From: an uncultured Candidatus Saccharibacteria bacterium | GTDB taxonomy: Bacteria > Patescibacteriota > Minisyncoccia > UBA6257 > JACOXY01 | Assembly (NCBI GenBank): GCA_964357615.1 | Contig: CAYHMC010000006.1 | Coordinates: 7,144 to 71,143 of the forward strand | Direction: 5' to 3' | DNA length: 64,000 bases | Part shown: piece by piece, positions 9,890 through 13,809 of the stretch | How the letters are laid out: the number at the start of each line of letters is the position of its first letter | How positions within the stretch are numbered: the stretch's first letter is position 1 | Translations under genes and position numbers: made by a program | The notes under the pieces: generated by a model | What the model was told of the DNA's origin: nothing | The model's input: only the letters and a program-made list of their open reading frames with translations | The model's database searches: none

Positions 9890-10834
9890 CTATTTTTCTA
9901 AAAGTTTTAATTTAATCTTATAAGCATTGCCGTGATGCAACATTCCCAAGTAAGAATTAGCTGCTTGAATATTTTCATTTCCTTTCATTCTTTTAAACAT
10001 TCTTCTTTTAGTAGCCGTGCGCAATACGCGATGACTAGGAAAGTGCACCCAACCTAAAAAATCAAGACCAGAAGCAAGAGTTTTCATATAAAGTTTTTGG
10101 GGATGTAATTCTAAGCCCAATCTATAATATAAAAAGTTTTTTATTGGTTCTATTTGATTTTCTAACCATTCCCTATTTTCCGACAAAATCACGAAGTCAT
10201 CTGCATAACGAATATAATAATTAGCTTTAAGCCTGTGCTTAACAAATTGGTCAAATTCATTCATATAGATATTCACAAAAAGCTGAGATGTTAAGTTGCC
10301 AAGCGGCAGACCAACTCCCGATCTAGTGAAAAAACTATCAATTATATTTTGAAGAAGCCTAAGTAAATCTTTGTCCTCAATTCTTGCGCACAAAATATCC
10401 ATCAAAACTTGGTGGTGAATATTAGCAAAGAATTTTTTTATATCACATTTTAGAATGAAGCAGGTTCGAGTATTGTTTTTACTAACTTTGTAGCCAAAAC
10501 TCTTAAACCTATCTAATGCTTTATGAGTTCCCTTATTTATTCTGCATGAATAAGAATCTGAAATAAAGGTTTTATCAAAAAATGGATATAGTTTTCTATA
10601 AATTGCGTGATGCAAAAGTCTGTCCCTAACAGAGGCTTTGTGTATATTTCTTGGTTTTGGATCAGAGATATTAAAAGCTTTATAATTTCCGTGACTGTAG
10701 GTTTTATTTAAAAGCTCCTCATACAGCAATAGAATATTGTCCATGAATTTTAAAGAAAATTCTTGAACATCTTTTCTATTATGCTTACCCTTTACAAATT
10801 CTCTCCAAGCTTCTAATATATTTTCCACTCCCAA
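9890..10834 (-). CDS. diversity-generating retroelement (DGR) reverse transcriptase
   Basis: 314 aa with RT motifs and YADD (IRYADDFVIL). Motif 4 reads LPLGNLTSQLFVNIY, the DGR-specific [I/L]GxxxSQ form. The compact size is typical of DGR RTs, and it lies next to a TR/VR pair. Confidence 0.85.
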   Translation of the reverse strand: MGVENILEAWREFVKGKHNRKDVQEFSLKFMDNILLLYEELLNKTYSHGNYKAFNISDPKPRNIHKASVRDRLLHHAIYRKLYPFFDKTFISDSYSCRINKGTHKALDRFKSFGYKVSKNNTRTCFILKCDIKKFFANIHHQVLMDILCARIEDKDLLRLLQNIIDSFFTRSGVGLPLGNLTSQLFVNIYMNEFDQFVKHRLKANYYIRYADDFVILSENREWLENQIEPIKNFLYYRLGLELHPQKLYMKTLASGLDFLGWVHFPSHRVLRTATKRRMFKRMKGNENIQAANSYLGMLHHGNAYKIKLKLLEK

Positions 10835-10873
10835 AACTTCTTCGAAATTTTAAGTAAACATAATTTTCATTAT

Positions 10874-10902
10874 AAAAAAAAAACTTTTAATCCCCCCCCC
10901 CC
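10874..10902. repeat. homopolymeric A10 and C11 tracts in the divergent RT/Avd intergenic region
   Basis: aaaaaaaaaa (10874-10883) and ccccccccccc (10892-10902), located between the RT start (10834, minus) and the Avd start (10931, plus). Confidence 0.9.
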
Positions 10903-10930
10903 ACGGAATAATATTTCAATTATTCAACAC

Positions 10931-11251
10931 TTGATACGTGCATATAAACTTTGGCACGGATTCTTGCCTCATATCCCAAAAGACGCACGCTACACTGTTG
11001 GCGCCAAAGTAGATTCTGCTTTTATTGAAACAGTTGAAGCGGTGTTCCGTGCAAGTATCACAGCTAAAGATAAAAAAATTGCCTACATCGAAGAAGCTTC
11101 GATAAAATTGGATATAGTTAAATTTTTCCTACAGATTATCTGGGAAATCAAAGCATTGGATACTAAAAAATATGCTCTTATCTCTGCAGAACTAAATGAG
11201 ATAGGCAGAATGATTGGCGGCTGGCTAAGACAAGCTATGAGCCGAAACTAA
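10931..11251 (+). CDS. Avd-like accessory variability determinant (four-helix-bundle protein, TIGR02436-like), TTG start
   Basis: 106 aa. The pattern ...IPKDARYTVGAKVDSAFIETVEAV...KIAYIEEASIKLDIVKFFLQIIWEIKAL...ISAELNEIGRMIGGWL matches the four-helix-bundle / Avd family. It is adjacent to the RT and TR. Confidence 0.65.
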   Translation: MIRAYKLWHGFLPHIPKDARYTVGAKVDSAFIETVEAVFRASITAKDKKIAYIEEASIKLDIVKFFLQIIWEIKALDTKKYALISAELNEIGRMIGGWLRQAMSRN

Positions 11252-11298
11252 CCACCAAACATTTTCTCCCTACTATTTTATAAAACATTTATTGCCAG

Positions 11299-11427
11299 TT
11301 GCCGGAAACTGCCACTCGACCGTTCGAGTTCTGATCATTGTCGAGCCAGTTCCAGTTGAGATACCAACGCTTGCCATCCTGATTGAGGTACGGGACGTTC
11401 CGGTTGCCGTTCTCGTTCACCACGATT
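11299..11427 (-). repeat. DGR template repeat (TR), about 129 bp, coding orientation on minus strand
   Basis: About 87% identical to 11768-11896. All 17 mismatches are T on the plus strand here (A on the minus strand). The minus-strand translation is Asn-rich (VVNENGNRNVPYLNQDGKRWYLNWNWLDNDQNSNGRVAVSG) with AAC codons. Confidence 0.85.
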
Positions 11428-11683
11428 GTACGAAAAATCACCCACGTCACCACCCCTTGAATTATCTTGAGGTTGTATATTATTCGGAATCTATAATTCT
11501 CTGATTTCTCGCACCAAGTAGCAAAAATGTGTAGCGTATAGATACAACTCTCTGGCAGAAAAATTTTCCGCTGCCATTCTCGTTTGTATTATCGCAGAGT
11601 TCAACCGCGTACAACCTTAGCCGTACGCGCAACGTCTACTATCTATATTTAAAATATCATAAGTTTAATAAATAAAAAAATTA

Positions 11684-11701
11684 CCCTTACTTTCGTAAGG
11701 G
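11684..11701 (-). terminator. rho-independent terminator downstream of DGR target gene (CCCTTAC-TTTC-GTAAGGG plus T-run on minus strand)
   Basis: A 7-bp perfect stem with a 4-nt loop is followed on the minus strand by TTTTTTT (A-run 11674-11680 on plus). It lies about 60 bp after the target stop. Confidence 0.6.
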
Positions 11702-11763
11702 ATTTCGGTCCAAGGGACCAAGGGACAAGAAGTCCCCAGGTCCCAAGGATCCGAATGCCAATG

Positions 11764-12378
11764 CTACTTGCCGGAAACTGCCACCCGACCGTCCGAGCGC
11801 TGACCATGGCCGAGCCAGTCCCAGTGGAGATACCAACGCTTGCCACCCTGATCGAGGTACGGGACGTCCCGGTCGCCGTTCTCGCGCACCACGACCAAGC
11901 CCGGAAAATCGATGTAGACTTTTCCGAGAAGAGCCATGAACTCGGGGAACTCGTCTTGATGGTCGACCAGCCAGACTGCTTGCTGATAACCGAGAGTTGG
12001 CAAAGAGATGATTCTTCGCTCGTATTCGACGCCACCGACCGAACCTTCGTCAGGCCGGAGAACCGTTCCGAGGGATAGCGTTACGGCTTCCGTCGGCGAG
12101 TTGTCGCGCTCGATGGATTTGATCCACGAGAACTTCGCTTGAATCTCTGCGATAGTCGGACGTGGAAGTGCGGGAATCTGAATCGCGACGTCCTCCATTT
12201 TCCGGAAGAAGCCTGCTGCAGCGATGAGCTTCGCGACGAACTCGTCGGTGAGCAACTTCAACGTATCCTCCGAAAGGTCGAGAACTGCTTCTTCTGATCG
12301 ACTGACCTTCAGTCCGCCGATGATGCGCGTTGTGATGGTCGTGAGAAACCCGAATGCCGAACCGATTTGTGACTTCAT
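11764..12378 (-). CDS. DGR target (variable) protein, 204 aa, GC-rich, VR-encoded C-terminus
   Basis: The minus-strand ORF ends 4 nt beyond the VR. Its GC content (mid-50s percent) is far above the flanking genes (about 33%). The C-terminal WYL.W.WL ligand-binding-like segment is diversified. Confidence 0.75.
   Translation of the reverse strand: MKSQIGSAFGFLTTITTRIIGGLKVSRSEEAVLDLSEDTLKLLTDEFVAKLIAAAGFFRKMEDVAIQIPALPRPTIAEIQAKFSWIKSIERDNSPTEAVTLSLGTVLRPDEGSVGGVEYERRIISLPTLGYQQAVWLVDHQDEFPEFMALLGKVYIDFPGLVVVRENGDRDVPYLDQGGKRWYLHWDWLGHGQRSDGRVAVSGK
11768..11896 (-). repeat. DGR variable repeat (VR) at 3' end of target gene
   Basis: Partner of the TR. It encodes VVRENGDRDVPYLDQGGKRWYLHWDWLGHGQRSDGRVAVSG at the target protein's C-terminus. 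The substitutions are AAC/AAT/GAT to CGC/GAC/GGT/CAC/CAT/GGC. Confidence 0.85.
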
Positions 12379-12651
12379 TGTACTACTCCTTTTTCCATGG
12401 TTTACCCCTCATTCTCGCACCATGCGAAAACCCCAGGCTCACCATTGTACTGCTTCTATTATACCATATTTAACCTATCTTTGCAATACCACACAAAACC
12501 TATAATTTATAACGCTTATATCTAAGCAGAATGTCGCGAAGGTCAAAAAGCTTGGTATCCGAAGGATTTTTTGACCGAGCGTCAAATTCCAACTTTTCGC
12601 AGGAAAAAGTTGGAATGTTTCTGCGTGATATAAGTGATATAAATTATCCCC

Positions 12652-13809
12652 CTACCTCAACTTATACCTTTCCTTTATAAGCTTAGTAATTTGTTTTGCA
12701 ATAGTATGATATTCAAATTTTGCTAGGGCATGCTCCGCTCCAGCTTTACCCATTTTTTCGCGCAAATCTTTATCTGTTAGGAGTTTAAGCAACGATTCTG
12801 CAAGAGAATTAACATCAGCACGATATGCAAATGTTTTTGGTTTATCAAAAATAATTTTATGGTCCTCTTCATAACCCATATCTTTATAAACCCATTCTTC
12901 ATCCAACTCTACAGTATCAGCCACAGGCGCTAAAAAACCAGTGACATCTTTAATGATTGTCTCCTTAGGCCCCATATGGTCAATTGAAATAACTGGTTTA
13001 CCACATGCTTGAGCTTCTACCTGAATCATTCCAAAACCCTCAAGACGAGATGGAGCTGCGTATATATCACAAGTGTTTAATAAAACATTCATAAACTCGT
13101 ATGACATTGGGCCTTCTGCAAATACAACGCGATCTTTATCCTCTCCTAATTCTTCAAGCAATGCTTGTTCGTCATCATAGTGTGAGTCCGCACTCTCCCC
13201 TCCCCAAAGTTTACAAATATATTTCCAAGAAATACCTTTCGTTCTTAACTCATCTTGTATTAACTTAAGAGCTTTAAAAACTTCTTGAGCTCCTTTTGAA
13301 GTAACATCTCCTCCGGCAGTTAAGATAACTACATCGCTATCTTCTATGCCAAGCATTGCCTTCATTGTCTTAATTTGCGGATCAGATTTTTTTAGTGGAT
13401 GACGACAAGCAGGATCGAAGCCAATATGTGCCACTTCAAAATTTTTAACATTTGTTCCGTCTCGCTTATAAGTTTCTTTCACCCACTCACTTGTAACTAA
13501 GACAAGTGGAAGTTCCCCTAAATCTTTTTGATAGTTTGCAACCCAGCCGTCAGCCACAAGCCAAGGCACAGAATTAATGCCAAATTGCTTTGCATGATGA
13601 ACAATGTCCGGTGTATTATTCCAAAACCCCACACCAACTGCAATATCTGGTTTAAAATATTTATAAGTCCATTCTTTTTGAAACTCAGCTCCTATACTAC
13701 ATGGCATAACATCTTCTCCGTTTTCTTTCATACCAGTATACAAAAAATGACCTTGCATCGAAAGACCATCGGGTTCAGGAGGATACGCATATAAAATTAC
13801 AGACTTCAT
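12652..13809 (-). CDS. glycosyltransferase family 4 (group 1) protein
   Basis: 385 aa with EGFGMIQVEAQACGKPVISID and a GT-B fold signature. Confidence 0.75.
   Translation of the reverse strand: MKSVILYAYPPEPDGLSMQGHFLYTGMKENGEDVMPCSIGAEFQKEWTYKYFKPDIAVGVGFWNNTPDIVHHAKQFGINSVPWLVADGWVANYQKDLGELPLVLVTSEWVKETYKRDGTNVKNFEVAHIGFDPACRHPLKKSDPQIKTMKAMLGIEDSDVVILTAGGDVTSKGAQEVFKALKLIQDELRTKGISWKYICKLWGGESADSHYDDEQALLEELGEDKDRVVFAEGPMSYEFMNVLLNTCDIYAAPSRLEGFGMIQVEAQACGKPVISIDHMGPKETIIKDVTGFLAPVADTVELDEEWVYKDMGYEEDHKIIFDKPKTFAYRADVNSLAESLLKLLTDKDLREKMGKAGAEHALAKFEYHTIAKQITKLIKERYKLR

Follow-up and report, generated by a model that had tools for sequence, protein, structure and literature searches.

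A very probable chromosomal diversity-generating retroelement in an uncultured Saccharibacteria bacterium and the structured leader RNA preceding its template repeat

A 64-kb stretch of contig CAYHMC010000006.1 from an uncultured Candidatus Saccharibacteria bacterium, hereafter the window, contains two near-identical 129-nt repeats, which raises the questions of what process made the two copies differ at one kind of base and how the RNA serving that process would be laid out. The locus is very probably a chromosomal diversity-generating retroelement (DGR) of the type found in Candidate Phyla Radiation (CPR) bacteria, with the gene order target-TR-(avd)-RT, where TR is the template repeat and RT the reverse transcriptase. 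To our knowledge, DGRs are the only natural system of targeted protein hypermutation in prokaryotes, and the small-celled CPR bacteria, organisms whose biology can hardly be accessed, are especially rich in them. The gene arrangement, including the inverted avd, has already been described as architecture B3, so that the locus is no new kind of element. It offers a clean and complete DGR whose variable domain is small (148 residues), has a confident C-type-lectin-like model and belongs to a family without a Pfam model, together with about 20 relatives that yield a covariation-supported RNA architecture bracketing the template to the nucleotide. What is new is the leader RNA and the permuted arrangement of primer and stop that it implies.

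Adenine-confined repeats and the genes around them

Positions are those of the window throughout, and the sense strand of both repeats is the minus strand. The repeats and the genes of the cassette are as follows.

11298..11427, minus strand: TR, consisting of the 129-nt repeat 11299-11427 and C11298, which lies beside helix 7 of the RNA described below
11768..11896, minus strand: variable repeat (VR), the final 43 codons of the target gene
11764..12378, minus strand: gene of the target (variable) protein, 204 aa, carrying the VR at the 3' end
10931..11251, plus strand (opposite to TR and RT): avd, 106 aa, pI 9.56, Pfam PF22296 bAvd
9890..10870, minus strand: DGR reverse transcriptase, Pfam RVT_1, open frame from TTG 10834, 314 aa

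The alignment of 11299-11427 with 11768-11896 was ungapped at an offset of 469 and gave 112 of 129 identities, the figure claimed in the initial annotation, and a repeat search of the window recovered the same pair independently. All 17 mismatches fell on TR adenines of the minus strand (T on the plus strand), again as annotated, with a hypergeometric P of 1.2e-11, and there was no non-adenine mismatch in the 129 nt; this adenine-only pattern is a direct observation. Of the 36 adenines in the TR, 17 were altered in the VR, 13 by A>G, four by A>C and none by A>T, the two 5'-most changes (11427 and 11426) lying at the repeat edge. With 11 AAY codons and 20 diversifiable codons, the TR could specify about 1e18 proteins. 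The earlier translations of TR and VR agree with those of the open reading frames (ORFs), and the VR, when the frames were rechecked, lay within ORF 12378..11764. Twelve is the number of amino-acid changes in the 41-aa stretch quoted earlier, to which I162V is to be added, but the number of codons touched is 15, not 12; the placement of the changes at first or second codon positions fails for one silent third-position change (CGA>CGG) and for the third base of codon 161. With A treated as N and up to six other mismatches allowed per 60 nt, a search of the 64-kb window turned up no other VR for this TR. A 54-aa ORF over the TR (11289-11453, minus strand) was rejected as a gene; it is the TR read in the VR frame and bears no signs of one.

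The relatives of the locus show the same pattern. The target protein had 184 homologs, all hypothetical proteins of about 200 aa without Pfam domains, and those with named sources came from the Patescibacteria group (Parcubacteria, Paceibacterota, Sungbacteria, Minisyncoccia); a profile search of 1.84 billion cluster representatives yielded 537 members. Among 82 related metagenomic loci retrieved, about 30 had the whole cassette, its order and orientation unchanged and its avd inverted, and every complete cassette had its own TR/VR pair, so that the conservation of the gene set is likewise observed directly. In 19 non-redundant cassettes, 345 of 578 TR adenines were changed as against eight of 1601 other bases, and the spectrum of substitution was A>G 59%, A>C 21% and A>T 19%. 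An ordinary duplication whose copies diverged through some other adenine-directed process, such as deamination producing A>G, or through chance, would accommodate the 13 A>G transitions among the 17 changes. We give this explanation hardly any credence: four of the changes are A>C transversions, the relatives show both A>C and A>T at the rates just given, the hypergeometric P value excludes chance, the changes are confined to one copy, the one within an ORF, and a DGR-type RT and avd adjoin the repeats.

The minus-strand order of the cassette is target, hairpin, terminator, leader, TR, inverted avd, RT. The avd-RT ORF gap is 96 nt, and 460 nt separate the TR from the RT ORF. The best solved relative of the RT is the bRT of Bordetella phage BPP-1 (8ub7; E 7e-42 over 279 residues, 4-282). 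The RT keeps the LPLGNLTSQ and YADD motifs, and the catalytic or template-contacting residues K17, F54, R62 and I64 are conserved; the equivalents of bRT K29, F66, R74, I76, G182 and Q187 are kept, and bRT I181 is Leu here (roles of the bRT residues from bioRxiv 10.1101/2023.10.23.563531). The model libraries returned no DGR-specific RT model, and the best NCBIfam match was a group II intron RT below its cut-off. The avd product scored 55.1 bits against Pfam bAvd (cut-off 40) and 68.6 bits against NCBIfam DivGenRetAVD, under the cut-off of 80.

The 3' ends of the repeats and the DNA beyond the VR contain three further features, all on the minus strand.

11762..11784, minus strand: VR 3' end resembling an initiation-of-mutagenic-homing site (IMH), GTGGCAGTTTCCGGCAA followed by GTAGCA, TAG stop codon included
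11704..11755, minus strand: long imperfect hairpin starting 9 nt past the target stop codon
11674..11701, minus strand: intrinsic-terminator-like hairpin (CCCTTAC GAAA GTAAGGG) with a T-run, which would end the target transcript

The 17-nt end GTGGCAGTTTCCGGCAA is the same in TR and VR, as the initial annotation had it, and its adenines are unaltered. The plain divergence of the flanks described there after this end was not borne out, in that likeness persists for about 10 nt (CTGGCAAT in the TR, GTAGCATT in the VR); directly after the shared end the VR reads AAGTAGCA and the TR AACTGGCA. The difference between ...AAGTAG-CA in the VR and ...AACTGG-CA in the TR recurs in most of 22 related cassettes compared, and a third fixed difference, GGA versus GGC, often stands just before AAGTAG/AACTGG in the relatives. 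By sequence, these conserved ends with fixed differences are IMH-like and fit the expectation for the IMH/IMH* pair that had been proposed as a candidate. The hairpin after the VR is built from 4-6-bp stems with 2x2 internal loops between them, CTTGG or CTCGG recurring on both arms, and this segmented form is kept in most relatives despite differing sequences. The DNA of 11640-11790 (151 nt, comprising this hairpin and the terminator hairpin) folded at -28 kcal/mol with a z of -5.6. A GC-rich inverted repeat downstream of the IMH is present in about a third of DGRs; here that place is taken by the hairpin 11755-11704, which is a candidate DGR target-site hairpin or cruciform.

Thus the traits by which a DGR is recognised were each found at this locus, namely a DGR-clade RT, TR/VR differences confined to A, a VR at the 3' end of a gene, Avd and an IMH/IMH* pair. 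The RT, avd, the position of the VR at the ORF 3' end, the IMH-like end and the hairpin all adjoin the repeats, in agreement with the earlier claim that mutagenic homing has operated here. The locus resembles the BPP-1 DGR (mtd-avd-TR-brt) in its homologous RT, the presence of Avd, adenine-specific TR-to-VR substitution, a VR at the 3' end of a C-type-lectin-fold protein, an IMH/IMH* pair with few fixed differences, the hairpin after the VR, and two adjacent RNA duplexes bracketing the TR. It differs in having an inverted avd that occupies the TR-RT interval, in lacking a 140-nt spacer there, in being chromosomal and cellular rather than phage-borne, and in its target, a 204-aa protein rather than a tail fibre. 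The region 10800-12700 gave no match to Rfam RT-10 at E up to 10, so that an RNA of BPP-1 type was not detected there. Architecture B3, TR-(avd)-RT, accounts for 90% of CPR DGRs, and most CPR VRs lie in proteins without recognisable motifs, the "UVR" classes (Wu et al. 2018, PMC5758913); Patescibacteria DGRs fall into a separate cellular clade (Roux et al. 2021, PMC8144416). Gene order, orientation and host group are identical between B3 DGRs and the window, avd lies on the opposite strand between TR and RT in both, and the VR is likewise in a motif-less protein. Nothing essential sets the window apart from B3 DGRs; the window and its roughly 30 relatives are one sub-lineage with its own target family.

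Two observations count against a DGR acting here in the expected way. First, the absence of A>T among the 17 changes is mildly unusual against the lineage spectrum (P=0.027). Second, the conserved start ATG of the RT (10868-10870) is followed by an in-frame TAA at 10850-10852, codon 7, the N-terminal frame reading MKIMFT*NFEEV. In 20 of 20 relatives the RT starts about 12 codons upstream of the ORF in the window, with a conserved ...F-E-[DE]-I; the start codon is usually ATG, with GTG, ATA or no evident one in a few. The RT may thus lack 12 residues or have lost its activity recently, and present-day DGR activity is uncertain because of this TAA. It is possible, though we hold it unlikely, that the cassette is a relic, in which homing occurred in the past, the RT was inactivated by the early stop and the VR is now frozen. 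The TAA lies within the N-terminal 12 residues kept by all 20 relatives, and loci with RT fragments only (L021, L024, L029, L057, L066, L067) show that cassettes do decay in this lineage. Against a relic, the RT is otherwise open over 314 codons and retains every motif, no non-adenine mismatch has accumulated in the 129 nt, and no damage is seen in avd, in the leader helices (64 of 65 pairs), in the IMH or in the hairpin. The TAA may be a recent nonsense mutation, may be bypassed by a restart at TTG 10834 or GTG 10828, or may be a strain or assembly variant. Should the element be dead, its death was recent, the other parts being intact and non-A mismatches absent.

The variable protein

The N-terminus of the target protein is helical and variable, and the conserved part is a C-terminal domain (residues about 57-204). 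The full-length structure model had a mean predicted local distance difference test (pLDDT) of 87.7 with a low-confidence helical N-terminus, and the domain 57-204 modelled alone reached a pLDDT of 96.3 and a predicted template modelling score of 0.90. A Foldseek search gave no significant match; the low-scoring structural matches were the Bdellovibrio Bd2740 fibre tip, thrombomodulin, CD72, LYVE-1, FGE, EgtB and SenA. The domain, whose fold class was observed directly on the model, confidently models as a C-type-lectin fold, and it is called divergent because of the low structural scores and the non-significant Foldseek result. The VR spans the last four strands of the model, and the variable residues are accordingly placed on a C-type-lectin fold, the DGR hallmark, as far as the model goes. 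Unlike Treponema denticola TvpA and other C-type-lectin DGR proteins, the target showed no sequence similarity to them and no FGE-sulfatase or DUF1566 Pfam match; its closest structures are invasin-/intimin-type and animal C-type-lectin domains, not TvpA.

Searches of the target against Pfam and NCBIfam returned no family, 50 members of the target family scanned at E up to 5 gave scattered chance matches only, and the family profile matched only designed helical repeats among PDB sequences. By eye, no signal peptide is evident in the target. The gene is preceded by a Shine-Dalgarno-like AAGGAG and a promoter-like site (12486-12458).

The target gene is the sole GC-rich island in its neighbourhood (52-62% GC, with about 36% around it), with a third-position GC content (GC3) of 0.64 versus 0.27 for the RT and an overall GC of 0.37 in the flanks. 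The target was also GC-richer than its own RT and avd in 16 of 16 related cassettes checked (L005, L010, L016, L017, L023 and L034 among the loci). Depletion specific to A was ruled out as the source of this richness, third codon positions being depleted in both A and T.

Homolog P0007 is among those with a C-terminus nearly as rich in asparagine as the TR translation (VVVNANGNRNYPYLNQNGKRWYLNWNWIDNDFNLNERVAS); judged from sequence, such a VR would be one that is barely diversified or recently reset.

The leader RNA and the possible permutation of primer and stop

Directly 5' of the TR lies a strongly conserved stretch with many compensatory changes. It was analysed with RNAalifold on an alignment of 20 cassettes, from 240 nt upstream of the TR to 135 nt downstream, which gave ten helices in and around the leader. 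The features of this RNA are as follows.

11428..11644, minus strand: conserved structured leader, about 220 nt, directly 5' of the TR
11519..11527, minus strand: helix 7, leader strand UUUUUGCUA, pairing with the TR 3' flank
11289..11297, minus strand: helix 7, TR 3' flank strand UGGCAAUAA, part of IMH*, with C11298 as the first unpaired template base 5' of it
11503..11514, minus strand: helix 8, 5' strand GUGCGAGAAAUC, after the linker CUUG
11428..11439, minus strand: helix 8, 3' strand GAUUUUUCGUAC, ending one base before the first TR base, 11427
11651..11659, minus strand: extended -10-like element TGATATTTT, candidate promoter of the DGR RNA by its sequence

In the predicted structure, 95.5% of the cells formed standard pairs, as against 37-52% with the partners slid by 1-3 columns. 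Double-sided changes were found in 47 of 65 pairs versus 17-19 for slid partners, and none of 500 shuffles reached the observed pairing values. In the window sequence, 64 of the 65 pairs form. Covariation of the helices is thus seen in the alignment itself. Conserved G-U pairs, for example in 18-19 of 20 sequences at two positions, would turn into A-C mismatches if the RNA were read from the opposite strand; therefore, the leader RNA is TR-sense. In helix 7, six of nine pairs had compensatory changes (e.g., UA:8/CG:7 and AU:10/GC:7), and the position of A11519 was A in 19 of 20 sequences. All 12 pairs of helix 8 form in the window, nine of them showing compensatory changes across the relatives. 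The leader strands of helices 7 and 8 are joined in 19 of 20 sequences by the 4-nt linker CUUG (11515-11518). The two helices bracket the TR to the nucleotide, leaving it as a 130-nt loop between adjacent helices. An equivalent of the extended -10-like element (TGATAnnnT) is kept in several relatives whose aligned sequence extends that far upstream; the promoter scan did not list the element at 11651-11659.

In the BPP-1 structure determined by cryogenic electron microscopy, Sp53-56 pairs with TR118-121 and Sp A56 primes at TR G117, and after two linker bases Sp59-70 pairs just upstream of the TR and stops the enzyme (bioRxiv 10.1101/2023.10.23.563531). These Sp strands lie downstream of the TR, whereas their counterparts in the window, the strands pairing with the TR flanks, come from the leader upstream of it, in the matching order helix 7, linker, helix 8. 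By analogy, helix 7 (leader UUGCUA with UGGCAA of the TR flank) would be the template:primer duplex, from which A11519 would prime at C11298, and helix 8, abutting the 5' end of the TR, would be the reverse-transcription stop, with synthesis ending at 11427. With helices 7 and 8 in these roles, the priming and stop module would lie 5' of the TR, unlike in BPP-1. Priming from A11519 and a stop at 11427 would explain both boundaries of TR/VR homology, and such a stop would support counting the edge changes at 11427 and 11426 in the repeat.

The proposed cycle would begin with a minus-strand RNA transcribed from near 11644, in which the leader of about 220 nt is followed by the 130-nt TR and then by a short stretch of 3' flank. 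The RT, acting with the basic Avd protein, would copy the TR into cDNA with misincorporation opposite adenines, and the cDNA would replace the VR at the 3' end of the target gene, guided by the IMH-like end and the downstream hairpin. In this way 20 codons on the putative C-type-lectin-like binding surface would be rewritten, with about 1e18 possible variants.

We regard it as an even chance that the DGR RNA of this lineage, possibly of all B3 DGRs, is a circular permutation of the BPP-1 RNA, primed in cis from the upstream A11519. Several points tell against this arrangement. The roles of helices 7 and 8 are inferred by analogy with BPP-1. The single-sequence fold of the window RNA was only marginally better than shuffles (z -1.7). 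A stem exists downstream of the TR, at 11258-11214, so that the primer may be a conventional 3' one, and a preprint by Handa et al. describes putative Avd-binding stem-loops and stop duplexes downstream of the TR in CPR DGRs. The stem is placed as follows.

11214..11258, strand undecided: stem of 11258-11252 with 11220-11214, enclosing the last ~10 avd codons and the stop

An RNA of conventional, BPP-1-like layout, with the primer and Avd-binding elements 3' of the TR in the antisense of the avd 3' end, is accordingly a tenable but less favoured alternative. The leader would then serve RT binding or stability, or would provide only the upstream strand of a stop duplex. This stem, conserved, mostly invariant and 30-40 nt downstream of the TR, speaks for such a layout, as do the downstream stem-loops and upstream-downstream duplexes reported by Handa et al.; helix 7 is itself an upstream-downstream duplex. 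However, the end of the copied region that helix 7 adjoins is the 3' one, and a stop must act at the 5' end, where helix 8 abuts with both of its strands upstream of the TR. RNAalifold on the 20 cassettes gave no conserved pairing between the TR 3' end and downstream sequence. Further, one arm of the stem is avd coding (...GGW motif) and the other non-coding, just past the avd stop, and its strand preference is weak, with five U-G pairs in the TR sense versus two G-U pairs in the avd sense, both small counts. The stem could be a shared two-way terminator, an Avd-binding stem-loop, or an element of the avd mRNA or of the TR RNA.

If the upstream primer is real, the mechanism seen by cryogenic electron microscopy in a phage DGR would hold, permuted, for the bacterial branch richest in DGRs as well, and DGR reverse transcription would have kept its RNA logic but not the linear order of the parts. 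The sites at which the cDNA starts (C11298) and stops (11427) would also be predicted to the nucleotide in an uncultured lineage, and the permuted DGR RNA would have its topology in common with retrons. As in the retron noncoding RNA (msr-msd), the proposed priming nucleotide would lie 5' of the template in the same RNA, with a long-range duplex to the template 3' end. The retron differs in the clade of its RT, in priming from a guanosine rather than the adenosine proposed here, and in that its product is kept as multicopy single-stranded DNA (msDNA), whereas a DGR product homes into a gene and Avd is required.

No described structure of such a leader RNA was found in the literature compared on B3 DGRs. 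An Rfam scan of the window at gathering thresholds returned four tRNAs only, the leader reaching no family threshold. The leader was considered as Rfam RF03019, the RT-16 RNA (Weinberg et al. 2017, PMC5737381), a motif that likewise lies beside RT genes; the match was full-length and on the same strand, sharing GCUAC, AUACA and GGUG elements. The assignment was rejected at 24 bits against a gathering threshold of 50 and with no match in the leaders of L017 and L034, and the match is probably due to chance or at most reflects a distant relationship. A 50-aa ORF at 11480-11632 was dismissed as well, as it lies in the structured leader, where the alignment has non-triplet indels. Phage-borne relatives were sought in IMG/VR with the pattern TGCTACTTGGTG-N82-105-TCGTGGT; the five matches were all chance, having no RT, Avd or target homology and no likeness to the leader beyond the pattern.

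Related loci without a full cassette and the surrounding DNA

Members of the target family also occur beside RT fragments only or without a cassette. Of this kind are L021, L024, L029, L057, L058, L066 and L067, as well as L001, L002, L004, L007, L008 and L012-L015; beside the target they have RT fragments only, or else RT, avd and TR are all missing from the DNA downstream of it. The downstream DNA covered at such loci was the full 3-6 kb flank in several and less at contig ends. These members are decayed cassettes, or orphan or remote targets. In a sub-clade comprising L009/L034, L039, L054, L056 and L074, a second homologous target gene lies directly downstream of the RT.

Two stretches between genes of the window remain to be described, the first of them between avd and the RT.

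10874..10902, read on the minus strand: avd-RT divergent intergenic tract, G11 (10892-10902) then T10 (10874-10883)

Of 19 related loci, 11 have a run of G7-G11, varying in length, at the corresponding position. The tract is a candidate slipped-strand (phase-variation) switch for the expression of avd, the RT or both.

The genes flanking the cassette in the window are ordinary cellular ones, encoding glycosyltransferases, a GH130 phosphorylase, a PIG-L deacetylase and a GIY-YIG protein. The region 12500-12650, which separates the target promoter from the upstream glycosyltransferase gene, contains two further hairpins flanked by the arms of a 21-nt inverted repeat (12502-12522 with 12627-12647, 90% complementary); the whole, 12502-12647, is probably a set of terminators.

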